From the IMG/VR virus record IMGVR_UViG_3300020048_000012: 64,000 nt of DNA. One strand, given 5' to 3'. Shown here piece by piece: positions 7,001 through 63,951 of this stretch (the stretch's first letter is position 1; every line of letters begins with the position of its first letter). The DNA is from a virus. The translations under genes and the position numbers were made by a program. Under the pieces are notes generated by a model. That model had not been told where the DNA came from. It ran no database searches and saw only the letters and a program-made list of their open reading frames with translations.

Positions 7001-10000
7001 CCTGAGTTTCGATTGTCAGTACACGAGTGCCTGCAACGGAAGTTGCTTGAGCACTGTTAATGTCGCGATTCGTATTACCAATAAAGTCTAATTCTTCTGC
7101 TGTAAATGTAGCGCGATTTCTCCAAAAAGAACCGCCGTTATTTGTTGCATTCAGAATCTCATTATTTGCAGTAGACCATGCGCCAATATTCTGCAATCGA
7201 GTGCCAAGTGAACTAGCAGAAGAAAACGCAGTCTGCCATGAATTCCATACTGTGCCTAGCACACCATCTGCATTCGCTTTTGCTACAATAGCATTATACT
7301 GTGATTCATCATTAAGAATAACGTCAGGGCGATGATGCGTTGAGAACCATGTATCACTCCATGGATTGATGTCAACGACACCTTTCCATGAATATAGCGC
7401 GTATGGATTGACATTTTCAGTCATCGATGCTTTAGTCTGAGTGATAAGCTCTGTTTCAGTAAATGGTAGAGTTACAATGTCGCCTGAAACTTTATAATTC
7501 TTAGTTGCAGCACCAACGTATTCGAGTAAAGATACTTGTTTTTGCGAAAAGAATGGACGCAATTCTTTGTTCGTAGAATCGATAGACGCATTCCAGTCAT
7601 CCGATGCAGCATTACCGATACCCTGACCGTCAAACGAATCTACGATAAATCCATTTTGGAAACGATCAAATCCTGACGAATCGATGATACGCATATTCTT
7701 TGTATCAAGTTCAGACAATGTCAATGATGTATAGTATTCGAGATCTTGAACGCGACGTTCGAGTTTGCCAATGTCGCGCATTGTGTAACGCTTATTTTCT
7801 TGACGATTTACGACAGTTCCAAGTTGATCGCCACGCTTAAATGTATATGGTTCGACTGACACTTGTGCCAATTTCATCGACATATTAGGAGTGCCGGGCT
7901 CAGATGGGTTTGCAGATGGAATTCCGCGATTAACAATGAACGCGCCAGTACTGCTCAATGAAACATTGTCTACACGAGCTAAATTGTTCGTGTATTTGAA
8001 TGAACCAGTCGTACCAAATTTTGGAAAGTAGTGAGTTTGAAAATTAGCACCAACCATATATGGACGGAAGTCAATAGAATCACGTAAAGGATATGATGCA
8101 ACAGTTGGAATCTGATCGTATCTTAGACGCGAATTAGCGTGCGTATACGAATTTACTGCGATGAAGTCGCCTGGGCTATTTTCAACAGAAGCCAAATATT
8201 CATATTTAATCATAATAGGACCAGTTGGCAATTCTGCGCCTGGAGCTAATGACAATGATGACAATGCAATCATAGATGCATCTTGACCTGTCGAAAACTG
8301 ATATCGACTAGTAATATTCATGCTATACGATGGAGACGCAGTTCCCCAAGGATTCGCTGACATGAGTACAGACACAATACGAGTAACGTATGAATGGTTA
8401 AGCGTAATCGTTTTAACTTGAGCTGTTGCAGCTGTCGTCAGTTGTATATTTGAAGCATCGGTTAGTGTTCTTTGCGCTTGAGCATTAACTGCGTCTGATC
8501 GCTTCAAAGTCGCTAATACTGTGTGAGAACCCGCACTCACTAAATTAGTCACAACTAGATTACCACTAGTCACAGTTAATGTGGCATTAGTGATAATGTC
8601 GCCTGTTGCATTATATGAAATGATATAATTATCGCTATCGTTCACAGATTCAAATGAATACCCAGTTGGCGCTGGAATAGTCATCGATCCTGCAGTTGCA
8701 GTCGCAGTAAGAGGAGCCACGACAGAGTATGTCGATTCTTCAATATTCGCGATTGCATAATCTGGCATCGGCCAAATCAAATAGCCATCATCAGGGTTTT
8801 GAATAGACGTAACGCCATTGGTTTGCACGACATTACAATTAAATTTAGTCGACGTAGTGTAAATAGATTTTACATTCGCAAAGTCTTTTCCAGTATTCAT
8901 TCGAATATCGAATAAGAATAACTTGTATGATCCAGTTTCGTGTTTTTCTAATGCACGCACGCGAGCATATCCAATGACTGATTCAGAACCAAGTACAACA
9001 GAGTGCAATTTTACTTCTGGCAATGTAATCAAATCTGGAACGTATTGCACAGAATTGACAATGATATATGAACCCATCGACAAATCGATTGATGTTGTCT
9101 TACTAGAAGAAACAGAGTCTACAACCGCAGGGAGCGAGTTAACTCCAAAATATTCACATAGGGCAGAAGAACCAGTTGGTAACGCTCTACTTTTTTCCGC
9201 TGGTAGAAATTCGGTCGAGATCTTTTCGATCTCATAACCACGAACATACGCTTTTCCAGCTTCAACGCCATAGGCTAACATGCCATCAAGTCTGATATGA
9301 TCATTCAGCGTAAATGCTGCAAAACTATCATCGCCCGCTGTAAACGTGTAAACGCCATTATTGAAATTCGGATATAGTACATACTCCCAAACGATATTGT
9401 TATCGATGATGCTATCGACAGACGCAAACGTACTAAAATCTGGTCTAATATTGCCAGATAATCCACTTGTCGTAGCAACAAAGTACAAGAAGCTTACGCC
9501 GTATGGAACTTTAACAAGATCGCCCTGAATAAATTTCTCTCCACCGGCCCAATCTCCGCGTAAATTATTGCGATAATCTCTGACATGAATAGGAAAAGGC
9601 GAAAGAGCGTAGTCGCCAGATTCGTCATACGTACGACGAGCTAATGTTTTTTCAATTTCGGCGTATGTTGTACGATCAATTTTAAATAAAACTTGACCGG
9701 CTTTAAGACGAAGTAAATCGATAAAATCGGTTTCTTCTGTTATAGTAACAGAATCTGGATCAAGAGTGATTTTAGTAAGAACTAAATCCATCTTATATCG
9801 AGCGGCGCCTGGTGCTGCGTAATTAGGAGAACCTAATGCATTATCAAGCAATGCTTCATCGTCTTCAGAATAGACTATCGACTCATTTAATTTTAGACCA
9901 ACTCTATAACTAGGCTCATTCGTATATTTGTCAAGAACGATAGTCTGTTCCTGCGCAAGAACAAAATTCTTTTTAATATAATAGATGCCGCGTTGAATAG

Positions 10001-35563: not shown

Positions 35564-35577
35564 AATAATCCTTATTG

Positions 35578-36099
35578 TTAATCCCGATAGAAAATATGTC
35601 GACCAATTTTTGTAGTTTTTTCCAGTCTACTCCAATTTGGTTGAACATAATCGGCATGATAGAACGTAGCACCAAATGTGTTATCCATTGTTGAATCATA
35701 ATTGAGATATACTAATGTGGCTATATCCTGTATCTGATTATACACAGATGTGTTAATTTTATTCAATCTATTTGTCATACCAACCCACGAAAATTGATAC
35801 GTACGACCAGTTTTTTGATATACAACTCCGCATAAAGAATTTGGGTATTTTCCAGATAGTGCCCTATTCATCGTAACAGCAGCGACAGCGATCCATCCTG
35901 CCATTGGCTCTCCAGCCGCTTCTCGATAAATGTTGATAGTTAAGCAATCAATTTGTTTTTTGACTGATTTTGACAATTCTGCGTATGCTACTTTATAATT
36001 CGATTCTCTCGATAATGTCGGCGCTATAGCAGAATTTGTAGTTGATATGAATGCTAAAATAAGCATTGCGTATATTGTGTATATGCTTCTTATTTGCAT
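35578..36099 (-). CDS. SleB/Hydrolase_2 cell wall hydrolase with N-terminal signal/TM
   Basis: CLTINIYREAAGE, VTMNRA....YPNSLCGVVYQ, QFSW, GATFYHADYV.PNW, IGRHIFY. Confidence 0.9.
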   Translation of the reverse strand: MQIRSIYTIYAMLILAFISTTNSAIAPTLSRESNYKVAYAELSKSVKKQIDCLTINIYREAAGEPMAGWIAVAAVTMNRALSGKYPNSLCGVVYQKTGRTYQFSWVGMTNRLNKINTSVYNQIQDIATLVYLNYDSTMDNTFGATFYHADYVQPNWSRLEKTTKIGRHIFYRD

Positions 36100-36118
36100 A
36101 ATATCCTTTTAATTGAAG

Positions 36119-36185
36119 GCCAACTGATTTGGTTATAAGGACAGTTGGCGAAACCTCAGGCTAAGTCAGCTTACGCTGCAAGAGC
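36119..36185 (-). pseudogene. Displaced 3' remnant of tmRNA coding piece (tag end ALAA* plus hairpin)
   Basis: GCT CTT GCA GCG TAA at 36185-36171, then GCCAACTG/CAGTTGGC hairpin at 36119-36149. Confidence 0.7.
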
Positions 36186-36192
36186 CCAAACG

Positions 36193-36200
36193 TATAAATA
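36193..36200 (+). promoter_or_regulatory. Late promoter TATAAATA of the tmRNA-inserted endonuclease
   Basis: Exact consensus about 40 nt upstream of ATG. Confidence 0.75.
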
Positions 36201-36242
36201 TTTAATATTATCACACTAACATAAATTATTAGGAATGACATT

Positions 36243-36929
36243 ATGAATATCTATATGCCGTATGTATATAAAGTAACTCATACAACAACACAGCAATTCT
36301 ATATAGGAATGAGATCTGCTAATACTGTAGTTGCGGAAAATGATTTAGGCGTGCATTATTTTACTTCATCTAAATTTGTAAAGTCTAATTTTGATTGTTT
36401 TAAAATTAAAATTTTGGCATACTTTGTCGACCAAGAAGCGGCGTTCGAATTTGAAAATAATTTAATACGCGATAACTGGGGAAATTCTTTATTATTAAAT
36501 AAACACTTTCAGACATCTATGAGCACATTCTCTATGACTGGGTTTGCTCGTCCTGATCAATCTATTCGTAATAAACATACAAAAAGTAAACCAAAAGAGT
36601 CTAGAACATATGTATGTCCTAATTGCCAGATTGAACATATAAAGGTAGAGCATTCACATTTGATACGAAAGGACAAATATTGCAGTAAGAGATGCTCAAA
36701 TCAATCAAATGGCAAAAAGTCTATTCAGCACAATAAAGGCAAAAAGCTCAAAAACACTGGAAGAGTCGCGTGGAATAAAGGAATATCAAATCAACATAGC
36801 GCTGAAAATGGAAAAAGAAGTGCTGCGAAGCAATCTCAAACAATCACTGGAAGAAAAAGAAAATATAGAGATGATGGATCTTGGTTCTGGATTAAAGAGT
36901 CAGTTGATCCTGTTACGAAGCTCAACTGA
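36243..36929 (+). mobile_element. GIY-YIG homing endonuclease (Zn finger and AWNKG motifs) inserted antisense in the tmRNA locus
   Basis: PYVYKV...FYIGMRS, FENNLI, CPNC..CSKRC, AWNKG; flanked by two tmRNA tag ends. Confidence 0.85.
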
Positions 36930-37241
36930 CAAAGCTCTACTCTATTGCTACTTATGCAGCTTGAAGAGAATATGCATACTCATCGTTTGCTTTTACTTGA
37001 TTTGCTTGATTAACGGTCATCGCGTACCGTGTCGCCGTCTCTACTATTTAGCCCAATCGATCGCCATGTCAGCCCCATCAGAAGAATTCTTGGCGTATCT
37101 GTCTTTGTTACCGGAATTGCACCGTACAAGCGGGATCTGGGATGCCAAACCTGAGGGATTAACCTTCAGAATTCTTCTGGTGGAGCTGCCGGCTTCGAAG
37201 CCGGTTCTTGGACTCCTTCATATTGAAGGGATTACGACAAT
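36899..37241 (-). ncRNA. ssrA: Circularly permuted (two-piece) tmRNA, tag (A)NDEYAYSLQAA
   Basis: Acceptor piece ~37241-37178 ending CCGGC-TTCGAA-GCCGG-CAGCTCC-ACCA; 101-nt intervening segment closed by GAAGAATTCT/AGAATTCTTC; coding piece starts GGGGCTG at 37076; tag frame 36990-36952; P2 TTGGGCT/AGTCCAA. Confidence 0.92.
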
Positions 37242-37244
37242 ATT

Positions 37245-37454
37245 TTAATTATATCCCAAATCGATATTGTCTGAACAATCTAATTTTGGACATAAAAACC
37301 ACTTAGTTTTACGTAAGTATTCTAACATATCGCTCTTATTCATGGCCATTGCTTTTGATGACATCTCAACAAACACATCGTATCCATGTAATATTTCTTG
37401 CTCTGATTGCCCTTGGCACCATGCCTGATACATTGTTTTTGTGTAGATATACAT
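37245..37454 (-). CDS. Hypothetical protein
   Basis: 69 aa; TATAAATA at 37481-37488 upstream. Confidence 0.55.
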   Translation of the reverse strand: MYIYTKTMYQAWCQGQSEQEILHGYDVFVEMSSKAMAMNKSDMLEYLRKTKWFLCPKLDCSDNIDLGYN

Positions 37455-37494: not shown

Positions 37495-38145
37495 TTAATG
37501 TCCTTTTATGCGACGGAATTGTTCTCGTAGTTCAACAAACTTATCGATCCAATTATCGCGCTTTTCTATAAATATGCATGGATTTTCATTGTCAACTCCC
37601 ATGATAATCACAAGTCGTGAAACAGGAATGCCAGTTCTTTCTTCGAATGCAACTGCATACGCAGAGCACTGAATAAAATAACCAGGAATATCTTCTTTTG
37701 TTTTGACACGAGAAGACGTCTTAAAATCGACTACAGATATCTTACCATCGTAATCGCAGATACAGTCGACTGTTCCCGCGACTTGAAGATGATCAGAATA
37801 AAGTTTTGACTCCAATGCATGAATGTTATCCATCATATCAAGATGTGGAATCATTGAGTTAAATACTTGCTGATCGAAAATAGTAGGCGTTGGATTCTTG
37901 TCGTGTAAATAATCCTCGCACAGAGAGTGAATAATAGTTCCACGCCTACTAGCTCTAGCGCCGACTCGATTTGCTTCTTCTTCGCCAACTCGCCGACGCC
38001 ACGCAAACAGCTCATCTCTACCCAATTGCCCTGTGATAGAAGTCACAGATGGATATTTCAGTCCTGTTGGAGTTTGATAAACGCGTCCATTAGGTCCATC
38101 GACGCGTTTAATCGATGGAAATTCATGATGTATAAAATTTTTCAC
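37495..38145 (-). CDS. PD-(D/E)XK exonuclease (Cas4-like phage exonuclease)
   Basis: YPSVTSI, RGTIIHSLCE, AGTVDCIC..DG.ISVVDFKTS, YFIQCSAYA. Confidence 0.85.
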   Translation of the reverse strand: MKNFIHHEFPSIKRVDGPNGRVYQTPTGLKYPSVTSITGQLGRDELFAWRRRVGEEEANRVGARASRRGTIIHSLCEDYLHDKNPTPTIFDQQVFNSMIPHLDMMDNIHALESKLYSDHLQVAGTVDCICDYDGKISVVDFKTSSRVKTKEDIPGYFIQCSAYAVAFEERTGIPVSRLVIIMGVDNENPCIFIEKRDNWIDKFVELREQFRRIKGH

Positions 38146-54955: not shown

Positions 54956-55638
54956 AATTTTAAATTCCTAGAATACGCTTCAATTTCGACTAATAAATCA
55001 TCTCTACAAATGTCTACATTTATAATTTTACCACTAATATTGTATTTTTGTAAAATATGTTTTACAACTTGATTTGATTCTTTATTCTTTACGTAGATAG
55101 TATACACTAAGTCTGAATTAGTTACACCCGATGTTGTCATCAATCTTCCGATATTATTAAGCGTTAAATCTATTTGACCAAACAAATCATCTTTATACCA
55201 TGTTTCACTGCCACGAATACTGGCTGTGCCAGATATCAATAAGTTATTGTCGTGTATTGCTGCTCGCGAAAATAATGGAACGCCATACACAGATGGATAA
55301 TTGAATGGATCTATTTGATTTGTATTGCTAAAGAAACGAGCTGGCGTTCGTGCTCGCGTATAGATGAGAGTGTATGTATCATCGAATGATCCTAAAGCAC
55401 ATGCAGTAGGATATTCCGTTACATTAAATTTAGTGAATATCTTTTTGCGAACTACATTGAATTTTGAGTATCGCTGAACGCCATCTTCATAACGAAGAAT
55501 ATCGGGTATAAAGTTTCTTATGTTGATAATGTATGGATATTCAGAATTGGGCGTAAACATTGCATTATACGCCCGTTCAATTTGTGATTCTATATCATAT
55601 CCACTTATTTTGATTTTAGTAGTTTGATAATTTTTCAT
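54952..55638 (-). CDS. FkbO/Hyg5/XanB2-like chorismatase (RidA/YjgF-fold)
   Basis: YPYIINIRNFIP, QRYSKFN..R, PTACALG, NQIDPFNYP..YG.PLFSRA, LISGTASIRG, DICRDDLLVEIEA; start moved to MKNYQ. Confidence 0.72.
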   Translation of the reverse strand: MKNYQTTKIKISGYDIESQIERAYNAMFTPNSEYPYIINIRNFIPDILRYEDGVQRYSKFNVVRKKIFTKFNVTEYPTACALGSFDDTYTLIYTRARTPARFFSNTNQIDPFNYPSVYGVPLFSRAAIHDNNLLISGTASIRGSETWYKDDLFGQIDLTLNNIGRLMTTSGVTNSDLVYTIYVKNKESNQVVKHILQKYNISGKIINVDICRDDLLVEIEAYSRNLKL

Positions 55639-55648: not shown

Positions 55649-55724
55649 TGGTGGTCGGAAGAACACTCGAAGTTCCACATTTATCCGTATGAAGGATACT
55701 CTCTGCCTCTTAAGATACCCGACC
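55649..55724 (-). tRNA. tRNA-Met/Ile2 (CAT)
   Basis: Cloverleaf; TATCC-TTCATAC-GGATA; CCA. Confidence 0.8.
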
Positions 55725-55727
55725 AAT

Positions 55728-55802
55728 TGGTAAGTCGAATAGGATTCGAACCTATATTAAAGCCTTATAATGGACTCTACTCTACCGTTGAGTTATCGAC
55801 TT
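55728..55802 (-). tRNA. tRNA-Ile (TAT), weak anticodon stem
   Basis: Good acceptor, D and T arms; loop ATTATAA; CCA. Confidence 0.65.
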
Positions 55803-55807
55803 ATTTA

Positions 55808-55951
55808 TTATAGTTTAGCACACTGTTCATACACTTTACCTTCACCTACACAAGGTATGAAGGCCCTCGAGGTAAATTCCGACTTTTCACATTTTCAGGT
55901 AATTACTCCTTACTTAGTGTTTCTCAGTTCGTGCAGTGCGCTAAACTATAA
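55808..55951 (-). ncRNA. Stem-closed ncRNA cassette A
   Basis: 18-nt terminal inverted repeat, 17/18 (G.U on minus strand). Confidence 0.5.
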
Positions 55952-56048
55952 CATATTAAACCATACTAACTGCCTAAGCCACAAGAGCTTAACCCTGCCC
56001 GTGATGTGAGCTACCTCATCTATCACGCACCCAGTGTGGTTTAATATG
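55952..56048 (-). ncRNA. Stem-closed ncRNA cassette B
   Basis: 16-nt terminal inverted repeat, 15/16. Confidence 0.5.
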
Positions 56049-56049
56049 C

Positions 56050-56145
56050 GAACTCATTGTAGGCAGGGGTCGAACCTGCACGAGGCGTCTATTTCCTCCG
56101 ACCCTATGAGAGGTCTATGACTACCAATTCCATCACTACGAGTTC
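56050..56145 (-). ncRNA. tRNA-like RNA with bulged acceptor stem, long variable arm and no CCA
   Basis: GGAATTGGTAG D-loop, GCAGG-TTCGACC-CCTGC T-arm, irregular TCTCATAG anticodon loop. Confidence 0.55.
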
Positions 56146-56194
56146 CTCAGGTGATCAGTCCCGAGAATGGTGAAGGGTAATTAATCCTTCGTTT

Positions 56195-56319
56195 ACCATA
56201 TTTAAGCGTCTTAATATCTCTCATAGTTGACGCTATAAGTTTTCGCAGGCCGTCAAACCCACCGAAATACTCTACGCGTTTCTTGCATAGAGTACCCCGT
56301 CAAGACACTTAAATATGGT
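56195..56319 (-). ncRNA. Stem-closed ncRNA cassette C
   Basis: 18-nt terminal inverted repeat, 17/18; arm includes the ACCA of tRNA-Val. Confidence 0.5.
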
Positions 56320-56390
56320 GATTGAGATAAGAATTGAACTTATGACCTCAACGATGTCAACGTTGCGTTCTACCACTGAACTACTCAACC
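56316..56390 (-). tRNA. tRNA-Val (GAC)
   Basis: Canonical cloverleaf; CAACG-TTGACAT-CGTTG; CCA. Confidence 0.92.
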
Positions 56391-56464
56391 AAGTTATGAT
56401 ACACGTATCACTTCAATACGTATCCATCGACTTCCGTCGTGCTTTCTACAATATCTTAAGCTAG

Positions 56465-56540
56465 TACCATATTAAAACACACACCTTGAACCTATGTTTC
56501 TCATCGTGTCCGCACAGGCGGGATGTGTTTTAATATGGTA
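56465..56540 (-). ncRNA. Stem-closed ncRNA cassette D
   Basis: Perfect 17-bp terminal inverted repeat; arm includes the ACCA of tRNA-Lys. Confidence 0.5.
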
Positions 56541-56609
56541 GGGCTGCTCGGTAACGATCCGAGTTTTACGAGTTAAAAGCTCGTTACTTCACCTTAAAGT
56601 TTCAACCCC
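56536..56609 (-). tRNA. tRNA-Lys (TTT)
   Basis: ACGAG-CTTTTAA-CTCGT; T-loop ATCGTTA; CCA. Confidence 0.85.
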
Positions 56610-56614
56610 ATGTA

Positions 56615-56689
56615 TGGTCCCGTGGCTCAGATTCAAACTGAGTTCTCTCGGCTTAAGAGGCCGGACTTCATCGTCAAAGTTTCCTCGGG
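56615..56689 (-). tRNA. tRNA-Lys (CTT)
   Basis: Loop CTCTTAA; one acceptor mismatch; CCA. Confidence 0.78.
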
Positions 56690-56801
56690 TGTTACGTATT
56701 GAATTATCTTTTACGTGCACACTTTAGACCATACATGGGATCTAAAGGGCACTATCGTTTAGCAGATGCTTTCATATAGTTTCCTTTTGTTTTAAAAATT
56801 A

Positions 56802-56830
56802 ATTATACTCTAATTACGTATTATTGTACA
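56802..56830 (-). promoter_or_regulatory. Early promoter TGTACA-17-TATAAT within tRNA cluster
   Basis: Exact family match. Confidence 0.85.
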
Positions 56831-56837
56831 CTAATTT

Positions 56838-56914
56838 TGGAAAGCCATGAGAGATTTGAACTCCCGACCTCTTCGTTCGAAGCGAAGTACTCTAGTCCAC
56901 TGAGTTAATGGCTC
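56838..56914 (-). tRNA. tRNA-Arg (TCG)
   Basis: CTTCG-CTTCGAA-CGAAG; CCA. Confidence 0.88.
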
Positions 56915-56920
56915 ATTGAT

Positions 56921-57124
56921 TTACGCGTAAGAATAAAACGTCTTAGACTTACCTTTAGAATTAGTTACAACGCTTGTGTTAATCGCGTATCCATGTTCAC
57001 GGATATCGCTAATGCGTGCGCGGACAGCATTTGGCGTAGTCTTAAGGCGTGATGCAAGTTGTGCGACGGTTTGTGTTTTGCCTTCAAGCACGAGAGTTTC
57101 AAAGATTTTGCGTTTAATCGACAT
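56921..57124 (-). CDS. Small winged-HTH DNA-binding protein
   Basis: TVAQLASRLKTTPNAVRARISDIREHGYAI; GAGGA RBS. Confidence 0.75.
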   Translation of the reverse strand: MSIKRKIFETLVLEGKTQTVAQLASRLKTTPNAVRARISDIREHGYAINTSVVTNSKGKSKTFYSYA

Positions 57125-57146
57125 AATATATCCTCTTATAATAAAA

Positions 57147-57220
57147 TGGAGTACTCATAGGGAATCGAACCCTATTACCCGGTTTTGCAGACCGTTGCCT
57201 ATCCAACTGGCTCTGAGTAC
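57147..57220 (-). tRNA. tRNA-Cys (GCA)
   Basis: Loop CTGCAAA, U73, CCA. Confidence 0.9.
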
Positions 57221-57224
57221 AAAA

Positions 57225-57299
57225 TGGTGCCGCTCCTAGGTTTCGATCCTAGTACCAAGGAATTATGAGTTCCCTGCTCTCCCATTGAGCTAGAGCGGC
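57225..57299 (-). tRNA. tRNA-Met/Ile2 (CAT)
   Basis: GGGAA-CTCATAA-TTCCT; CCA. Confidence 0.9.
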
Positions 57300-57307
57300 A
57301 AATAAAA

Positions 57308-57624
57308 TTAACACTTCCACTGGACCAGCCTGGCGTACAGACTGCGGTGGCTCCACCGACAGAAACGTTTATCAGGATTTGAAGAACTTTGATTGCCTCG
57401 AGTCTTTCGACTTGTCAATGGCTAATCGTTGTGCTTTCATGATTTAAACGTTTATCTTTGACACTTAAACTTTGAACTTTAATATTTAAACGTTGAGGTT
57501 CCATATTGGTAGGCATTTCTGCCCGATAGTTCGTTGATTTAAAATATCAATGATTTGTCCATATTTTGATACTGAGGACAATAAGTAAGGCCGTTCTAAT
57601 CTGTTCGGTCCAGCAAAGTGTTAA
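57308..57624 (-). ncRNA. ~315-nt stem-closed RNA with 7-nt repeat core, directly after coiled-coil gene
   Basis: Terminal helix TTAACACTT..CTGGACC/GGTCCAG..AAGTGTTAA; eight heptamers at 57495-57440. Confidence 0.6.
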
Positions 57625-57625
57625 C

Positions 57626-58264
57626 TTAAAAACTGATAGTTGTCTTGGCGTTAACCTCAGACAAAGTGAAATCCAATTCAGTATCGACAAGAGAAATTTC
57701 TTCCTCAAGTGCAGCAATCTTCTCAACAATGTTGACTGGGTCAATCAATGCAGCTTCCTTCATAGCCTTCTGAGGCTTAGCAATTAGGTCATATGAACCT
57801 GCGTCCACCTTGGATTTATCGCTACCATAAATGGTCTTCAAGTTAGAGTCAATGTCTTGCTCCAACTTGGCGTTCAATTGAGACACAAGGCCTTGAGCAC
57901 GAGTTTGTTGAAGACGCATAACATTCAACAGATTACGCTTGCTGTCGATCGAACGCTTCATTTCGATAGCTTCTGCGACAGTCACTTCAATCGAACCAAT
58001 CTTCACTGTCGTGACAGCATTGGACTTAACGATCGCAGCTTTGATTGCGGCACGTTCCTTAAACAGCGAATTCACAGTATCAAAAGAACTCTGGATCTTA
58101 GCCTTAGCCTGATCGACGGACAGTCCTGCCGTATCATTGACCTTCATCTGAGCGTCTTTACCAACACTGACAGTCACAAACATACCGGCACTCGTCGCAC
58201 GAGCAATACGGTCATCGAGACGCTTCAATTCAGCCAAAGCACGAGTTACAGACATTGTGTTCAT
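57626..58264 (-). CDS. Coiled-coil protein (DIP1984-like family)
   Basis: MSVTRALAELKRLDDRI, VTVAEAIEMK, LIDP..I..KI..LEEEI...D..LSEVNAKTTI; start set by AAGGA RBS. Confidence 0.75.
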   Translation of the reverse strand: MNTMSVTRALAELKRLDDRIARATSAGMFVTVSVGKDAQMKVNDTAGLSVDQAKAKIQSSFDTVNSLFKERAAIKAAIVKSNAVTTVKIGSIEVTVAEAIEMKRSIDSKRNLLNVMRLQQTRAQGLVSQLNAKLEQDIDSNLKTIYGSDKSKVDAGSYDLIAKPQKAMKEAALIDPVNIVEKIAALEEEISLVDTELDFTLSEVNAKTTISF

Positions 58265-58296
58265 TTTCATTTCCTTCATAGTTAAACGTTGATTAT

Positions 58297-58375
58297 TGGT
58301 ACCCAAGAGGAGACTCGAACTCCTAACTTTTCTTCGTTCTTAGCGAAGCGCCTTTTCCAATTTGGCAACAAGGGC
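58297..58375 (-). tRNA. tRNA-Leu (AAG)-like, two acceptor mismatches
   Basis: CTTCG-CTAAGAA-CGAAG; Leu-type D loop; CCA. Confidence 0.55.
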
Positions 58376-58381
58376 ATTATA

Positions 58382-58456
58382 TGGTACCTCTGCCAGGAAT
58401 TAAACCTGGATCTGAACCTTCGCAGGGTTCTGTGATATTCATTTCACTACAGAGAT
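58382..58456 (-). tRNA. tRNA-Arg (GCG)
   Basis: GAACC-CTGCGAA-GGTTC; CCA. Confidence 0.78.
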
Positions 58457-58462
58457 AAATTC

Positions 58463-58610
58463 ATTATTGTTAAGAGTTATCATGCAAATTTAGGAGTGAG
58501 GTGCTTCCTCTCCAAAGCCGATGCAGTTATATTAGGATCAGTCGCCGGCCGCTTTGACCCGAATAGATTACACGTCTGTAATCGATACCTTGATAACGCT
58601 TAACAATAAT
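58463..58610 (-). ncRNA. Stem-closed ncRNA cassette E
   Basis: 20-nt terminal inverted repeat, 19/20. Confidence 0.5.
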
Positions 58611-58681
58611 AAAACACATTAGGAGTCCTATGGAGGGGAGATTATGACCTTCGGAACAACCCTAAGAACTAACGTGTTTTA
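58610..58681 (-). ncRNA. Stem-closed ncRNA cassette F
   Basis: 13-nt terminal inverted repeat, 12/13 (G.U on minus strand). Confidence 0.45.
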
Positions 58682-58822
58682 ATAAATCAGAGGCTGGTCT
58701 AAGATGTCACAGAATCGAACTGTAAAACCATCATCTTAAAGAGCGCGGAGTTTCTAGCTACTCATTGCTCCACTCGGCCGAGTTAACCCGTTACATGCGC
58801 TAACACATAACACCTCTAAACT

Positions 58823-58900
58823 TGGTGTGAGCATCCGGATTCGAACCGGAGTATCTGAGTTGGCAACCCAGGACATTAGACCAAACTATGCTATGCCCAC
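58823..58900 (-). tRNA. tRNA-Gly (GCC)
   Basis: CTGGG-TTGCCAA-CTCAG; A73; CCA. Confidence 0.85.
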
Positions 58901-58907
58901 GAAAATA

Positions 58908-58982
58908 TGGTGCTCCCATAAGGACTTGCGCCCTACTCTGAGGCTTACAAAACCCCTGCATCGCTATCTATGCTTTGAGAGC
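58908..58982 (-). tRNA. tRNA-Thr (TGT)
   Basis: GGGGT-TTTGTAA-GCCTC; T-loop CGCAAGT; CCA. Confidence 0.78.
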
Positions 58983-59109
58983 AGATCCAACTGTGAACTT
59001 ATGCTAAGCCGTTGGCGCTTTCGCAGCCAGATCAAGGTTCTGGAAGACCTAAATTGGTGGGATCAGTTTCACAGTCGTCCCGGCGTGTAGGATATACTAC
59101 AACTATATC

Positions 59110-59180
59110 TGGATGCGGGTGAAGGGCACGATCCTTCTGGGCCGAGCTTATGAGACTGGCCGATCACCTGAATACCCGCA
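59110..59180 (-). tRNA. tRNA-Met (CAT)-like with reduced D-arm
   Basis: Perfect 7-bp acceptor, CTCATAA loop, 71 nt, CCA. Confidence 0.5.
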
Positions 59181-59236
59181 ATATTTTGTTTATTGATTAA
59201 TTATACAACAATTTCTATTTAATAGAAAATCTAATT

Positions 59237-59311
59237 TGGCTCCCCAGGAAAGGTTCGAACTTCCGACCAAGTGATTAACAGTCACCTACTCTACCACTGA
59301 GCTACTAGGGA
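59237..59311 (-). tRNA. tRNA-Asn (GTT)
   Basis: Canonical; G73; CCA. Confidence 0.93.
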
Positions 59312-59413
59312 ATAATAAAAATGTAGTGTAACTGGAGTCTTAATTACCAGTATAGCGCAGGCGCACGCGGGAGACTAATCATCTCAGGCAAGTGATAACG
59401 CCTACTACAAAAT

Positions 59414-59499
59414 TGGCTCCACGGGTAGGGATCGAACCTACGATTGTCAAAAGACGACTGGTTAACAGCCAGCTGCATTACCTCTCTGCGCACCGTGGA
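59414..59499 (-). tRNA. tRNA-Asn (GTT) with long variable arm
   Basis: GCTGG-CTGTTAA-CCAGT plus GTC-TTTT-GAC extra arm; G73; CCA. Confidence 0.8.
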
Positions 59500-59587
59500 A
59501 TAAAATTCATTGAATCGATTCGGAATTTAACCGCTCTGTTTCCTCTTTCGAGTGAAGGCTCGTTCGACACCTCCCAGATCACTTATT

Positions 59588-59661
59588 TGGTTGGTCTGTT
59601 ACGAATTGAACGTAAATCGGTCGCTTATAAGGCAACTGCTCTCCCATTGAGCTACAGTCCA
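59588..59661 (-). tRNA. tRNA-Ile (TAT)
   Basis: GTTGC-CTTATAA-GCGAC; CCA. Confidence 0.8.
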
Positions 59662-59669
59662 ATAAATTT

Positions 59670-59744
59670 TGGTACCTGGTGTTGGTTACGCTCCAACTAC
59701 AAACGCCTTATCAAGACGCTACCTCGCTATTCGGTCTACCAGGC
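59670..59744 (-). tRNA. tRNA-Ile (GAT)
   Basis: GCGTC-TTGATAA-GGCGT; T-loop AGCGTAA; CCA. Confidence 0.82.
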
Positions 59745-59769
59745 ATGCGGACCCAGATTTATGTCATTA

Positions 59770-60010
59770 GGCCCATTAGACAGAGGTCTCTTGAGTTTAG
59801 ATAGTCAAGCTATCAAAGCGAGTTGGAGACACTGCTTATACATTTGAGTTCCCGTTTGTCATTGTGGCACGGGTCGCCTTGACGTCCTCAAAAAGGTTCT
59901 CAGAAACTGTGTTAACAGTCTTGTCTCGTAAGAAGGAGATCTTGCGTGTTCGTGTGAAAAAGCCCAATCAGTTGGCACTACTTGCGACTCGACTTCTACG
60001 TCTATCTGAA
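59770..60010 (-). ncRNA. Candidate RNase P-like RNA, possibly circularly permuted
   Basis: P4-like AAG-T-CGAGT / ACTCG-CTT helix with bulged U; P5-like GTCGC/GCGAC; P15-like CCCGT/ACGGG followed by GAACTCAAATG. Confidence 0.5.
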
Positions 60011-60013
60011 ATT

Positions 60014-60090
60014 TGGAGCGTCCACCCGGATTCGAACCGGGACCATCAGCTTGGAAGGCTGTCATGCTAGCCGTTAAACACCATGAACGC
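60014..60090 (-). tRNA. tRNA-Gly (TCC)
   Basis: Loop CTTCCAA; U73; CCA. Confidence 0.92.
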
Positions 60091-60096
60091 AAAACT

Positions 60097-60222
60097 TGGT
60101 GTGTAGAGTAGGTCTCGAAGCCTACAAATAGTACCATACTCTGAGTCGTTAAACTCATATCAGAATCGAACTGAATGACCAGGCTCATCACCCGGCGCGT
60201 TTACCAATTACGCCATCTACAC
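60097..60222 (-). ncRNA. 126-nt giant tRNA-like RNA (Leu-type frame, multi-hairpin variable region)
   Basis: 7-bp acceptor plus ACCA; D and T arms intact; loop TGATGAG; three extra hairpins, one a second TTCGATT T-arm. Confidence 0.7.
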
Positions 60223-60230
60223 ATAAAAAC

Positions 60231-60305
60231 TGGTATCCCGTATCGGTTATGCTCCGATCTCAGTAGGGTGAAGGCCTACTTGCCACACTAGCTGCATCAC
60301 GGGAT
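60231..60305 (-). tRNA. tRNA-Glu (TTC)-like with C33
   Basis: GTAGG-CCTTCAC-CCTAC; T-loop AGCATAA; CCA. Confidence 0.65.
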
Positions 60306-60314
60306 ATAAAAACT

Positions 60315-60389
60315 TGGCGATCTTAGCCGGTAACGATCCGGCTCTTCCTCTTAGACAGAGAGGTGTGCGTCCATGAACACTTTAAGACC
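60315..60389 (-). tRNA. tRNA-Asp (GTC)
   Basis: CCTCT-CTGTCTA-AGAGG; G73; CCA. Confidence 0.88.
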
Positions 60390-60394
60390 TAAAA

Positions 60395-60745
60395 TTCAAG
60401 TCACAACCATTGGGACTCATACCCATTCTATAAAGTGTACCAGTGTGACCAGCGTACACGAAGTTTACTCATGGGCATTTACTTTCCCATTAATTCTTAA
60501 ATTAGGTCGGGAATACACGGCGTTAGAAATAAAGTGGCTCTCGGTTTCGAATCAAAAGCGTATGAATATAACTTCTGTCCCTAGGCAGTCTTTCCGCCGA
60601 CAATGTGTTTCAAACCCCTACTGGACCGACTTACTCTCGCATCGTCAATGATCTGTGGCTTAGTACGTCCAGCATTATTGAAGACCTCCCAGTCTCGGAA
60701 GGCTCGGCACCCATCTACTCATCCTACTAAACATTGTCTTAGTAA
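60395..60745 (-). ncRNA. Candidate large structured RNA
   Basis: No credible CDS; helices CTGGAC/GTCCAG, GTCGG/CCGAC, GGCGG/CTGCC, GTGTAC/GTACAC. Confidence 0.35.
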
Positions 60746-60747
60746 CT

Positions 60748-60824
60748 TGGCTCCCGTGGCACTCATCGCATAGTGCGTTATCTAACCATTGGCTAAGGTC
60801 CGCGCAGACCCGCTAAACACGGAA
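60748..60824 (-). ncRNA. tRNA-like RNA with CCA and non-canonical anticodon arm
   Basis: Acceptor TTCCGTG/CACGGGA-G-CCA; GCACT/AGTGC and GGTC/GACC arms; anticodon unreadable. Confidence 0.5.
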
Positions 60825-60831
60825 ATAAAAT

Positions 60832-60917
60832 TGGTGGAGTTTGTCACAGGCTTTCACTGTGATTTGCTCAGCTAAGTTATAGCTGCTTTCGTCCTATATG
60901 TTACGTATTCAAACCCC
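60832..60917 (-). ncRNA. tRNA-like RNA with Ala-type acceptor (G3.U70), 8-bp acceptor, 6-bp T-stem, AAC loop
   Basis: GGGGTTTG/CAAACTCC-A-CCA; CAGCT-ATAACTT-AGCTG. Confidence 0.6.
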
Positions 60918-60983
60918 ATAAATTGGTGGACCCCTGTTTCTATGCCTGGGCCCATTGATAGAGTATCTACTATCAGCATGTTT

Positions 60984-61059
60984 TGGTGGAGGTGAGGAGG
61001 ATCGAACTCCTATCTAAGCATTGCAAGTGCTCCGTGTAACCCATTATCACTACACCCCC
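60984..61059 (-). tRNA. tRNA-Ala (TGC)
   Basis: G3.U70; loop CTTGCAA; CCA. Confidence 0.92.
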
Positions 61060-61065
61060 AAAAAC

Positions 61066-61137
61066 TGGTGGACCTATGGGGAATCGAACCCCAAGCATGG
61101 CATTGCAAGTGCCTTTCCCGTCCCATACGGTAAGCCC
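61066..61137 (-). tRNA. tRNA-Ala (TGC), compact D-arm
   Basis: G3.U70; loop CTTGCAA; 72 nt; CCA. Confidence 0.75.
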
Positions 61138-61253
61138 AAAATAAAAGTAACGGTATATGGATTCTTTCCCGTCAGTTGCAGAATTGAACTTTCGAACAAT
61201 CGCCACATTCCAAGTACTCCGTGAAAGGGAGGATGTATCTGCATCTTATAAAC

Positions 61254-61329
61254 TGGTCAGTGATGTTGGTCCCGCCCCAACGGCCTCTCGCTTCCAAAAC
61301 GAGTACTCTACTAGCTGAGCTAATCACTG
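61254..61329 (-). tRNA. tRNA-Pro (TGG)
   Basis: Loop TTTGGAA; T-loop GGCGGGA; CCA. Confidence 0.82.
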
Positions 61330-61434
61330 TAAATTCTTGCTGTGGTAGCTAATACCTCAAGCACAAGCAGTGCATCCCAGTTACGCTGGTTCGTTTATGC
61401 AAGGGCGAGTTTGCTTACGCCTTAGAGTGCTCAT

Positions 61435-61510
61435 TGGTCTCCATACGAGGATTTGAACCTCGGCTTCTTGGTCCCAAACCAAGTGCGCTACCAGGCTACG
61501 CAATACGGAG
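61435..61510 (-). tRNA. tRNA-Pro (GGG)
   Basis: CTTGG-TTTGGGA-CCAAG; CCA. Confidence 0.9.
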
Positions 61511-61516
61511 AAAATC

Positions 61517-61602
61517 TGGTGGATGCGGTAGGATTCGAACCTACAAGTCCGTGAGGAGCCGGATTTACAGTCCGGGGAGCCAACCAATTGCTCAACACAT
61601 CC
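61517..61602 (-). tRNA. tRNA-Tyr (GTA)
   Basis: CCGGA-CTGTAAA-TCCGG; long variable arm; CCA. Confidence 0.92.
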
Positions 61603-61609
61603 AAAATTA

Positions 61610-61721
61610 ATTATACATAAACATACTCGCATCTGCCTTTGGAGCCGCGTGTTCCTCCCCTTGTTTTACCACAGGATCCTGTGGAGGAGTGTGCACATTT
61701 ACACCAATGTTTATGTATAAT
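61610..61721 (-). ncRNA. Stem-closed ncRNA cassette G (112 nt)
   Basis: Perfect 15-bp terminal inverted repeat. Confidence 0.5.
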
Positions 61722-61831
61722 CATATTGAAACATATTCCAGGGGGATTCGCACTTGCCTTTTCTTCAGTAAACACTGACCCTGCATCTTAAATCAATAAG
61801 AGGAACCTAACAAAATATGTTTCAATATGAT
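61720..61831 (-). ncRNA. Stem-closed ncRNA cassette H (112 nt)
   Basis: Perfect 18-bp terminal inverted repeat. Confidence 0.5.
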
Positions 61832-61924
61832 CCCGAGGGTATCTCGGTAAATTGAGTAGCATTCCAGCGACAGTCCGATTACCAGTCGGATGCCTGCATC
61901 TCTACACAATCATTATCATATTCA

Positions 61925-62295
61925 AATGCTCCGGGAATACTGAAGGGCATTCTTAGCATCTCTCTTTCCACAGTATAAGACGAATGGAAGATTGCTTAAC
62001 TCACCCCATGTTCAAACCAAAACACTTGAATATGATTCCTGAAGCAGTGAACCAGCACACGTGTCCGGCGCTTACTTCAGGATATCATGAAAAATCATCA
62101 AATTTTGAAAGAACAAATCGGGATATCTTACGATACATTACATGCAACAAGGATCGACCAAGCCGCAAACTTTCGTTCACCTCATCAAACATCATTTCTG
62201 TGTTCAACTACCTTAGTGCGCCACTTAGTGGACTACACTCAGAACCCGATTAAAATTTTAAAGAATCTTTCTTGAAGTCCCGATCAACTTCTAAG
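61925..62295 (-). ncRNA. Candidate large structured RNA directly after a promoter
   Basis: AATCGGG/CCCGATT domain closure, TCCTGAAG/CTTCAGGA long hairpin, TTCAA/TTGAA hairpin; no credible CDS. Confidence 0.4.
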
Positions 62296-62300
62296 ATTTT

Positions 62301-62329
62301 ATTATACCACATTTACTAATTAAAGTAAA
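62301..62329 (-). promoter_or_regulatory. Early promoter GTTTACT-17-TATAAT (T4-like -35)
   Basis: Matches T4 early GTTTAC box. Confidence 0.8.
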
Positions 62330-62495
62330 CAAGTATTTTAAAAATTGTGATACGCTTGGTGTGAAACAAGTCGTCTTTATGTGCGTTCTTTTTTGGCTAT
62401 ACCTGCGAGTTTCACGCAGCGTCAATAAACACATAAATTTCACAATTTTTAAAGAACTTCCAAGCAAACTCGATGGTTTGTTTGTTTATGGATTT

Positions 62496-62524
62496 ATTAT
62501 ACCACGAAGTCTATTTAATGTACA
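62496..62524 (-). promoter_or_regulatory. Early promoter TGTACA-17-TATAAT
   Basis: Exact family match. Confidence 0.85.
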
Positions 62525-62655
62525 CCGTTTTATGCATTATTTTTAGTGCTTCAGGTGACTTCAAGAGACTTACGTTGGTATACTTACACTTGCCCGATGA
62601 ACAATGACGTACGTACACTTGATGCACATAAGTTGTTGATTTATATAGGCCTAAA

Positions 62656-62730
62656 TGGCATCCCGACTAGGACTCGAACCTAGACATGCAGTTTTGGAGA
62701 CTGCAGTGCTGCCAATTACACTATCGAGAT
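62656..62730 (-). tRNA. tRNA-Trp (CCA)
   Basis: GCAGT-CTCCAAA-ACTGC; G73; CCA. Confidence 0.92.
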
Positions 62731-62746
62731 ATGAAAATACAAAGGG

Positions 62747-62818
62747 GTGACCTATGGGGAATGCTCCCATTCTATCGCTTTCACAGAGCGAGGTGCGAAA
62801 CTTTTACACTAAGGTCAC
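62747..62818 (-). tRNA. tRNA-His (GTG), no encoded CCA, inside an extended terminal stem
   Basis: TCGCT-CTGTGAA-AGCGA; C73; flanks AATACAAAGG/CCTTTGTATT pair. Confidence 0.6.
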
Positions 62819-62836
62819 ACCTTTGTATTCTAAACT

Positions 62837-62913
62837 TGGTGCGTCTGGAGGGATTTGAACCCCCAACAGTTCGGGTAGAAGCCGAGTACTCTATCCAGTT
62901 GAGTTACAGACGC
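62837..62913 (-). tRNA. tRNA-Arg (TCT)
   Basis: Loop CTTCTAC; CCA. Confidence 0.92.
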
Positions 62914-62920
62914 AAATTCT

Positions 62921-62997
62921 TGGTGCCCGAGGTCAGATTCGAACCGACACGATTTTGATTTTGAATCAAACGCCTCTACCAATTGGGCTACACGGGC
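62921..62997 (-). tRNA. tRNA-Leu (CAA), short variable loop
   Basis: TTTGA-TTCAAAA-TCAAA; A73; CCA. Confidence 0.85.
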
Positions 62998-63006
62998 AAA
63001 TATTCT

Positions 63007-63083
63007 TGGTGCGAATGGCGGGACTCGAACCCGCAGATTATGGGTTTTAAGCCCACTGCCTATACCAATTCGGCTACATTCGC
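63007..63083 (-). tRNA. tRNA-Leu (TAA), short variable loop
   Basis: GTGGG-CTTAAAA-CCCAT; CCA. Confidence 0.88.
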
Positions 63084-63097
63084 ATACTAACTAATTC

Positions 63098-63185
63098 TGG
63101 CGGAGCATGTAGGAATCGAACCTACTCACCACTTACGCAGTGACAGATTAGCAATCTGTTGCCTTAACCGGTCGGCCAATGCTCC
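63098..63185 (-). tRNA. tRNA-Ser (GCT)
   Basis: ACAGA-TTGCTAA-TCTGT; long variable arm; G73; CCA. Confidence 0.93.
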
Positions 63186-63193
63186 TTAAAATT

Positions 63194-63268
63194 TGGTGCT
63201 TCGTGACAGATTCGAACTGCCGACCCTCGCCGTGTAAAAGCGTAGCTCTACCACTGAGCTAACGAAGC
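63194..63268 (-). tRNA. tRNA-Val (TAC)
   Basis: Loop TTTACAC; CCA. Confidence 0.9.
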
Positions 63269-63269
63269 A

Positions 63270-63503
63270 TTAACCATTTCGTCTACACTTATAGACATAT
63301 TCTAATCCATCTGGCAATACGCCATCATTGATACTATCAACACCAGATTTTCCAACTTGATTTGGATCTTCGCATACTGTTGTAACAAATGACATACCCA
63401 ATTTACGCATTCCTTCTGACACTTCTAACGCTCTAAGTAGAGTCGCTGTGTCTACAGCGTGTGACCAGTTTGTGACTGGATCAGTATAATACACTTTAAA
63501 CAT
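63270..63503 (-). CDS. Conserved hypothetical protein within tRNA cluster
   Basis: 77 aa; MFKVYYTDP...FVTTVCEDPNQVGK.GVD.I.DG.LPDG..Y. Confidence 0.75.
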   Translation of the reverse strand: MFKVYYTDPVTNWSHAVDTATLLRALEVSEGMRKLGMSFVTTVCEDPNQVGKSGVDSINDGVLPDGLEYVYKCRRNG

Positions 63504-63518
63504 AATTCACTTTATTTA

Positions 63519-63595
63519 TGGTGGGGATGGAGAGACTCGAACTCTCAGCTTACGGCTTCTAAGACCGCTGCGTCTACCAATTGCGCCACATCCCC
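63519..63595 (-). tRNA. tRNA-Leu (TAG), short variable loop
   Basis: GCGGT-CTTAGAA-GCCGT; CCA. Confidence 0.9.
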
Positions 63596-63604
63596 GAAAT
63601 ATAT

Positions 63605-63678
63605 TGGTCAGTGATGGAGGTACCGCCCCTCCGCTTCAAGTTTCCAAAACTCGTAGACTACTTTTATCTCAATCACTG
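63605..63678 (-). tRNA. tRNA-Pro (TGG), second copy
   Basis: Loop TTTGGAA; T-loop GGCGGTA; CCA. Confidence 0.75.
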
Positions 63679-63685
63679 ATTAATC

Positions 63686-63759
63686 TGGTGCCCCTTCAAG
63701 GAATTGAACCTCATTCTGATGCTTACAAGGCAACTGTAATACCAATATACTAAAAGGGC
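63686..63759 (-). tRNA. tRNA-Thr (TGT), second copy
   Basis: Loop CTTGTAA; CCA. Confidence 0.82.
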
Positions 63760-63763
63760 TTCT

Positions 63764-63834
63764 AATATTTGAGCATACTAACTGGATCCATCTCGCACTA
63801 GGTGCATCTCGGGCGATCAATATGCTCAAATATT
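63764..63834 (-). ncRNA. Stem-closed ncRNA cassette J
   Basis: Perfect 14-bp terminal inverted repeat. Confidence 0.45.
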
Positions 63835-63873
63835 GGAGCTGCTACGGAGAATCGAACTCCGCTTGTCGGGATG
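63834..63873 (-). pseudogene. 3' half of a tRNA (starts in the anticodon loop)
   Basis: CATCCCGAC-AAG-CGGAG-TTCGATT-CTCCG-TAGCAGC-T-CCA; 5' half absent. Confidence 0.65.
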
Positions 63874-63876
63874 ATC

Positions 63877-63951
63877 TGGAGTCGCATACGGGAATCGAAC
63901 CCGTCTCTACAGCATGAAAGGCTGTTGATCTAACCGATAATCTAATGCGAC
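63877..63951 (-). tRNA. tRNA-Glu (TTC)
   Basis: ACAGC-CTTTCAT-GCTGT; CCA. Confidence 0.88.

Follow-up and report, generated by a model that had tools for sequence, protein, structure and literature searches.

The 64,000-nt window analysed here, the whole stretch of IMG/VR record IMGVR_UViG_3300020048_000012, belongs to an uncultured freshwater T4-like phage: a T4-like myovirus is indicated by its genes for baseplate wedge and hub proteins, a tail-tube cap, and both topoisomerase II subunits, and by an array of 31 tRNA genes. On its minus strand the window carries a permuted transfer-messenger RNA (tmRNA) gene, within whose tag reading frame lies a 789-bp segment with an antisense gene for a predicted GIY-YIG homing endonuclease; beyond that gene is a second, orphan tag end with a hairpin of its own. 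An earlier, sequence-only reading of this region had listed a tag end YSLQAA followed by a hairpin, the antisense endonuclease codons ESVDPVTKLN, the orphan ALAA and the second hairpin, and all of these are present at the positions it gave. The features discussed below are as follows (L001 is a relative in IMG/VR, and X2 and X4 are metagenome runs, all without the segment; R1 is a covariance model and A1 a protein alignment, described with the results).

37178-37239, minus strand: tmRNA acceptor piece, with the 3′ half of the tRNA-like domain, the T arm, and the CCA end at 37180-37178 (RF04321 alignment, model positions 1-62; sequence)
37078-37177, minus strand: intervening segment, presumed trimmed in maturation, poorly conserved relative to L001 (unaligned insert in the Rfam alignment; pairwise alignment)
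36895-37077, minus strand: coding piece of the occupied allele, with the 5′ acceptor strand, P2, the PK1 hairpin, the tag frame, and the post-tag hairpin (RF04321, RF01850; R1 match 36895-36940)
36952-36990, minus strand: tag reading frame in use, 12 codons and a stop, ANDEYAYSLQAA (sequence, Rfam, empty-allele alignments)
36895-36982, minus strand: replacement 3′ module, with tag codons 3-12, stop, spacer, and a hairpin (stem 36930-36922 / 36907-36899) with the conserved family loop (sequence, alignment, R1)
36194-36982, no strand assigned: probable mobile cassette, 789 bp, in whose place relatives have two bases, CA on the minus strand (joint of 36193 to 36983 in X2 and X4 contigs; L001 alignment)
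36243-36929, plus strand: predicted GIY-YIG homing-endonuclease gene, 228 amino acids, antisense to the tmRNA (PHROG 314, Pfam, AlphaFold model, I-TevI structural match, alignment A1)
36194-36242, plus strand: endonuclease upstream region, 49 nt, with a T4-late-promoter-like octamer at 36193-36200 (octamer search; possible promoter role)
36115-36193, minus strand: stranded native 3′ end, with the last six tag codons and stop (36193-36171) and the native hairpin (stem 36149-36142 / 36126-36119) (L001 and X2 alignments; R1 match 36115-36159)

The tmRNA call has independent support from two models: Rfam RF04321 (tmRNA_permuted) matches 36952-37239 on the minus strand over the whole model at 114.7 bits (gathering threshold 47), and the betaproteobacterial two-piece model beta_tmRNA (RF01850) matches 36927-37287 at 88 bits (cut-off 84). 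ARAGORN called no tmRNA in the 64-kb window, despite calling 31 tRNAs; this is a miss by the tool, and the gene is present. Its order is permuted, with the acceptor piece followed by a spacer of ~100 nt and then by the coding piece. The tag frame opens with an Ala resume codon and closes with ...YSLQAA and a stop, and the post-tag hairpin (36930-36899) has a 9-bp stem and a 14-nt loop. Past the orphan ALAA and its stop (36185-36171) comes a hairpin of 8 bp with a loop of 15 nt (36149-36119). An Rfam scan of the region at E≤1 gave tmRNA matches only, with none to intron models. A group I intron was considered as a reading of this arrangement and rejected: the nuclease gene is antisense, no intron model matches, and a stop codon and a hairpin already belong to the working copy.

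Related genomes have the same tmRNA gene without the insert. The exonuclease gene that neighbours it (37495-38145) was used as a query and retrieved 38 IMG/VR loci; 15 of these were scanned with Rfam, and 8 of the 15 have a permuted tmRNA and no endonuclease. In the closest empty relative, L001 (exonuclease 91% identical), an uninterrupted tag, ANDNVWALAA, is followed by a hairpin, and window positions 36193-36119 differ from this functional tag end and hairpin at 2 positions, which together make one compensatory change in a stem pair (G-C to A-T). RF04321 gives 121.8 bits for the L001 gene vs. 114.7 for the occupied one. Two metagenome runs from other studies add empty alleles at different distances: X2 (freshwater) has flanks 99–100% identical to the window, with 0–3 differences per piece, and X4 (aquatic, from a third study) a 6.7-kb contig about 90–95% alike. 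In the contigs of both, 36193 is joined to 36983, with the 789 bp skipped and two other bases between, the same reading as in L001; the orphan end (36193-36115) is identical in the cassette-free X2 contig. The cassette is placed at 36194-36982 because of these joints and their agreement with L001. Parts of the window without cover in X2, X4, or a further run, X3, were left out of the evidence, and run X1, which contains the entire stretch and is probably the sample it came from, was not counted as support; no RNA run with this DNA is listed. The cassette is thus polymorphic for presence and absence at a homologous site, with L001, X2, and X4 all empty.

These alleles uphold the core of what had been proposed from the sequence, namely that an element lies inside the tag frame with a replacement tag end and hairpin, leaving the native end stranded: the endonuclease-free relatives lack the YSLQAA end and share 36119-36185. 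The form of the empty allele had been anticipated in part. The tmRNA body is joined directly to 36119-36193, as expected, while the tag reads ANDNVWALAA and not ANDEYAY-ALAA. Given this tag, the break falls at tag codon 2–4, and the replacement reaches beyond the last four codons to nearly the whole tag, further than had been supposed. The native part of the working tag consists of codons 1–2 and part of codon 3, with the remainder coming from the cassette; the last ~90 bases of the tmRNA gene are a foreign tail, and the native end has been displaced ~790 bp.

The replacement and native tails are about 59% identical. A blastn search with the 2.7-kb region against 50,697 phage records found no relatives and a sole match of 59 nt, which is the tmRNA tail of the Alcaligenes phage vB_Af_QDWS595, a schitovirus. 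This tail is 72% identical to the window replacement tail over 90 columns, and 85% over the core. It ends an endonuclease-free permuted tmRNA (OK149171.2, about 55010-55310; L132 1756-2065; RF04321, 111 bits) with a 10-codon tag, inside a cluster of at least eight tRNA genes; the record annotates nothing there. An exact search of IMG/VR for the new tag end gave one chance match, in an unrelated contig. The new 3′ segment, which had been described as recoded, is by these alignments a natural foreign tmRNA tail, diverged, and nearest to that of the Alcaligenes phage.

Tails of this kind share a recognizable architecture. A loop motif near CCUYRUAACMRAA is kept after the tag in empty, working, and orphan tails alike, while the stem sequence varies freely and stem lengths differ. 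A covariance model (R1) built on eight tails finds one copy per empty allele and exactly two in the 64-kb window, flanking the endonuclease gene; together with the L001 match, this means that the second tag end is no chance match. In the alignment fitted to R1, all 8 stem pairs have two-sided changes and 98.4% of cells are paired, far above shuffled and slid controls, a count that must be read with the alignment having been fitted to the covariance model itself. The post-tag hairpin is a conserved module of these phage tmRNAs. An upstream purine run can in addition pair with the 5′ side of the loop to form an H-type pseudoknot, for which support is modest, with three core pairs of which one has changed in a compensatory way. 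A fourth pair (columns 7–20) finds no support in the pair counts. The two window stems do have the strand-swapped cores pointed out earlier, but no other occupied locus has them, and they are read as a coincidence on ordinary stem covariation.

The open reading frame (ORF) at 36243-36929 ends in ...ESVDPVTKLN and a stop, its last ten codons lying antisense to the replacement hairpin. It falls in the homing-endonuclease family PHROG 314 (E=1.2e-11), and homologues ~58% identical to it exceed the Pfam GIY-YIG cut-off (P0005, 24.9 bits; P0060, 25.9 bits). In an alignment of 32 homologues (A1), the near-invariant residues are, in window numbering, Y20, G22, R24, E71, and N86, with the first motif as YVY at residues 8–10, and the window protein retains every near-invariant Tyr, Gly, Arg, Glu, and Asn of the family; in the C-terminal half, WNKG-type motifs recur and four cysteines are conserved. 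The AlphaFold2 model derived from A1 reaches a mean pLDDT (predicted local distance difference test) of 81.5, with residues 1–90 mostly above 84. Its top structural match is the I-TevI catalytic domain (1ln0/1mk0; Z 7.2 and 6.9, with a root-mean-square deviation of 2.9 Å over 81 residues at Z 7.2), and the further matches, PD-T4-3 (Z 6.2) and the UvrC N-terminal domain (Z 5.5), are all GIY-YIG. A profile search of PDB sequences with A1 gave weak zinc-finger matches only, and did not find I-TevI by sequence. The GIY-YIG identity assigned on sequence is borne out by the fold, the conserved residues, and the homologues that pass Pfam: the ORF encodes a GIY-YIG enzyme whose activity is predicted from the alignment and the model.

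The T4-late-type octamer upstream of this gene (36193-36200) straddles the right cassette junction, and the same A/T-rich motif also ends the cassette in the other lineages. The window holds 10 such octamers where 6.9 are expected, with no enrichment, so that transcription of the endonuclease from this one is a suggestion.

The arrangement recurs. Metagenomic homologues of the endonuclease number about 60, at 45–58% identity, none of them named and all with intact frames; the window protein itself is recorded from a ~202-kb contig. Three that were looked up each have a permuted tmRNA immediately 3′ on the other strand (tail-to-tail), in mutually unrelated neighbourhoods: a periplasmic-binding protein and a tail-spike peptidase in one, a release factor and a cytochrome c in the second (a 318-kb contig), and an amidoligase in the third. 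A single-protein scan of IMG/VR with the nuclease gave no match; an alignment-based scan found 80 loci, comprising 16 full-length orthologues and 64 with the catalytic domain only. A complete tmRNA (by Rfam) is present at 14 of the 16 full-length loci and a partial one, at a contig end, at 1 of the 16, with the last having too little flank to judge; among the 64 catalytic-domain-only loci there is no adjacent tmRNA. A tblastn search of the 50,697 phage records gave catalytic-domain matches only (39% identity), so that no cultured phage among those records carries an orthologue. The nuclease family is dedicated to permuted phage tmRNA genes.

In every occupied locus (15 in IMG/VR and the three look-ups) an orphan tag end lies just past the endonuclease start, typically ...LAA and a stop, often followed by its own hairpin and a terminator. 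A conserved A/T-rich cassette end precedes it, and in most lineages the orphan begins at tag codon 3, placing the insertion site at GCAAAY^GAY, right after the resume and Asn codons, which is the most conserved part of these tmRNA genes. The window's right junction is 4–6 nt further 3′ than this canonical one, which is read as a small loss there. At least 16 phage lineages have the cassette design. In L044, L048, L055, L056, and L057 the frame of the orphan is broken by a shift or an interruption, with the working copy always intact, which fits the orphans being relics.

Several of these loci have peculiarities of their own. L048, L062, and the pair L044/L053 (IMGVR_UViG_3300025015_000009) repeat a resume-like start directly behind tag codons 1 and 2 (L048, about 3716-3760, AN-AANDE...; L062, about 3255-3305, ANFKV-ANDE...), which suggests a longer donor piece joined at a break right after codon 2. 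The working tag of L044/L053 (L044, about 3735-3845) runs to 35 codons, ending ...ELVA, where 10–13 are usual, and the orphan has a normal ...YALAA end. L040 (3722-4040) and L041 (3630-3953) do not differ in endonuclease (P0005), cassette, spacer, or adjacent genes. Each half of their tRNA-like domains is different (acceptor piece and 5′ part of the coding piece), as if these base-pairing halves had been swapped together. The permuted tmRNA match spans 582 bp in L052 (3222-3803) and 401 bp in L057 (3204-3604), compared with about 250–310 bp elsewhere; in L058, otherwise near-identical to L057, it spans 261 bp, and the L052 and L057 spacers seem to hold extra DNA. L087 (140-739 and 1544-1827) has the same exonuclease-tmRNA synteny and a different GIY-YIG gene (199 amino acids, similar in the catalytic domain only), which lies outside the tmRNA, 860 bp from it and beyond two small genes.

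Taken together, 36194-36982 is very probably a mobile cassette of a tmRNA-specialised family, carrying an antisense GIY-YIG gene and a complete replacement for the 3′ part of the tmRNA. What the computations show directly is how the cassette is built, that empty and occupied alleles both exist, which way the change went, and that the design recurs in other lineages; cleavage, homing, immunity, promoter use, and function of the chimeric tmRNA we infer, and the same goes for the proposals that the element restores tmRNA function and removes its own target. Several points weigh against the reading. The window protein itself scores 15.8 bits with Pfam PF01541 (E=0.018), under the 22.6 cut-off, and has no Pfam match at E≤0.01; Foldseek gives a probability of 0.94 with a weak E of 0.18. 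The closest endonuclease in the databases is 58% identical, with no near-identical donor cassette, so that movement is visible only as presence vs. absence, and endonuclease and tail distances are uncorrelated across lineages (Mantel r=0.11, p=0.19), which gives no sign that nuclease and tail are strictly inherited together. For X2 and X4, the empty joints were read from assembled contigs rather than raw reads. The new tag ends in QAA where LAA is usual, and its function as a proteolysis tag may differ. Finally, on the 5′ side of the junction the occupied allele still has the conserved sequence, and on the 3′ side some 5 bases are likewise kept, so that any immunity must rest on positions further 3′.

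Other explanations account for parts of these data. Were the cassette ancestral and lost from the relatives, the polymorphism would be a deletion; gain and loss are known to alternate in homing-endonuclease genes, and presence or absence by itself gives no direction. Deleting 36194-36982, however, would leave a frameshifted tag without the two bases common to all three empty alleles, and the empty reading is found in lineages at about 100%, 90–95%, and 78–91% similarity; the replacement tail, for its part, is far from the native one (only about 59% identical) and resembles that of an unrelated phage. Since a deletion would not recreate the two bases, and the same empty reading is found at three divergence depths, loss is very unlikely; from the alignments, the empty allele is ancestral and the window state an insertion. 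It is also improbable that the cassette was inserted with a nuclease that is inactive or domesticated, any spread being by ordinary homologous recombination between tmRNA genes. The subthreshold Pfam score, the lack of a closely related donor cassette, and an enzyme activity that is itself a prediction would all agree with this. The ORF is nevertheless full length with all near-invariant family residues, the 45–58% identical homologues keep their frames, the strict tie to one target across unrelated genomic contexts is a signature of site-specific homing, and the near-identical strain in X2 has an empty allele.

The two tag ends might instead be alternative modules of one regulated gene that switches tags, since both are intact in the window and each has a stop codon and a hairpin. 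The orphan, however, has neither a resume codon nor an upstream tmRNA body, and lies behind an antisense gene with no flanking inverted repeats for inversion; its frame is broken or shifted in several lineages, where working copies are all intact, and near-identical phages lack the cassette, all of which makes a switch scarcely credible. Free-standing GIY-YIG genes are common between phage genes, and ARAGORN called no tmRNA here, as would suit an ordinary intergenic endonuclease downstream of a tmRNA with the "orphan" a chance or unrelated sequence. That explanation is refuted: the orphan departs from the L001 functional end at just 2 positions, R1 matches it and one other place in the window and nothing more, and it is joined directly to the tmRNA body in the cassette-free contigs.

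A mobile cassette with a replacement end could work as follows. Its entry point would be the beginning of the tag frame, directly behind the resume and Asn codons; as the native body is then read into the foreign tail, the tmRNA is whole without splicing, and in the chimeric gene the Rfam score and the structural module are preserved. During mixed infections the nuclease would cut tmRNA alleles that lack the cassette, at or close to the resume codon, where conservation is high, and T4-type recombination machinery would repair the break from the occupied allele, copying the cassette in. The homology arms would be the tmRNA body on the left and the displaced native tail on the right, this being the native tail's sole role. 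Its altered sequence 3′ of the junction would protect the occupied allele from being cut, and the endonuclease may be transcribed from the octamer at the right junction. The cutting, repair, and immunity steps are modelled on what is established for free-standing GIY-YIG genes of T4-type phages (SegB; PMC2330249), and the phage of the window is itself T4-like.

The surroundings of the locus seem prone to change as well. Directly beyond the second tag end and hairpin, which sit just upstream of it, is a cell-wall hydrolase gene; in L001 an additional gene of 153 amino acids (7223-7684), whose product begins like a signal peptide, separates the tmRNA from the hydrolase gene, where the window (36100-36118) has none. 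In the X4 relative, 113 nt of the window (35564-35678) are exchanged for 121 other letters. The extra gene and the exchange make the region around the tmRNA a hotspot of small insertions and deletions. Further away, the tRNA array (55649-63951, minus strand) has duplicated Ala, Pro, Asn, Ile, and Met genes, and one 88-nt ARAGORN call whose "anticodon" has two bases (56055-56142).

The usual view is that homing endonucleases persist in essential or conserved genes mainly by way of self-splicing introns or inteins, or else between genes. The cassette would add a third route in bacteriophages, for an RNA gene: to insert and bring a substitute end. The natural target of the nuclease family would be the resume-codon region, the most conserved stretch of the tmRNA, which makes it a testable recognition site and the protein a possible new sequence-specific enzyme; the matched natural pairs of empty and occupied alleles could be used in experiments. 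The cassette would also account for the phage tmRNA genes that automated tools overlook or end wrongly, and for the duplicated "tag ends" of phage contigs, and through it unrelated phages could exchange tmRNA tags horizontally and turn them over rapidly. More tentatively, such cassettes might be the main driver of tag diversity in phage tmRNAs at large, with invasion rewriting the tag and post-tag structure, loss of the nuclease fixing the foreign tail, and homing acting serially; this is a doubtful extension, under which new tags (QAA here, 35 codons in L044/L053) may change the host protease, if any, that recognises tagged proteins during infection.

Among known systems, I-TevI, the endonuclease of the T4 td intron, is the best structural match (residues 4–90, Z 7.2). 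Both proteins combine an N-terminal GIY-YIG domain, a linker, and a Cys4 zinc-finger-like and helical DNA-binding region, going by the model and alignment for the window protein. I-TevI is, however, intron-encoded; identity is about 20% and confined to the catalytic domain, and C-terminal homology is not demonstrable. T4 SegB is a free-standing GIY-YIG homing endonuclease in a tRNA gene cluster (PMC2330249). Like the window nuclease it belongs to a T4-type phage; it recognises a conserved motif of a structured RNA gene and spreads without an intron, along with flanking RNA genes, in mixed infections, much as is proposed for the window nuclease. Unlike the window gene, segB lies between tRNA genes, interrupts none, supplies no replacement end, and leaves no orphan, and the similarity of the two proteins is limited to the catalytic domain.

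Two-piece tmRNAs are known in marine and aquatic phages, with no endonuclease described in them (PMC9004378). The 2025 tmRNA database paper covers standard, intron, and permuted forms, including 79 phage tmRNA sequences, without this feature; endonucleases appear there only as LAGLIDADG ORFs in T-loop introns (PMC11915505). In some of those T-loop group I introns, as here, a homing endonuclease resides in a tmRNA gene without destroying it, but the introns self-splice as RNA in one-piece bacterial genes, whereas in the window continuity is at the DNA level, through a substitute tail. Full-text literature searches combining tmRNA with either "homing endonuclease" or "GIY-YIG" turned up no account of such an arrangement. 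Integrase islands and prophages at tRNA and tmRNA genes also carry the 3′ end of their target, keeping the gene whole, with the displaced fragment marking the far end (Islander, PMC4383910). They differ in using a tyrosine integrase at attP/attB, in ranging from kilobases to hundreds of kilobases, in targeting the tRNA-like 3′ end of a bacterial gene, and in restoring a segment that is near-identical, not diverged.

The closest known mechanism is that of the fungal mitochondrial mORFs (Allomyces macrogynus atp6; Glomus atp6, atp9, cox2, and nad3), which carry a replacement for the 3′ end of the gene (PMC3630166). There too an endonuclease ORF (GIY-YIG in atp9 and Allomyces atp6) lies near the 3′ end of a conserved gene, a diverged foreign 3′ end is joined in phase, and the native 3′ end is displaced downstream, unexpressed and matching close relatives, with no intron or intein needed. 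The window has the same divergence pattern: replacement and orphan are about 59% identical, while the orphan has 2 differences from L001 and none from X2. In the mORFs, however, the target is a mitochondrial protein gene, and here it is a phage RNA gene; the window nuclease is antisense and unfused to its target, the module it brings is a structured RNA element together with a short coding frame, and a whole orthologous nuclease family serves the one target across many phage lineages. The window cassette thus works like the mORF type without being a member of that group, and it would be a case of free-standing homing-endonuclease mobility with 3′-end replacement, applied to phage tmRNA by a dedicated family.

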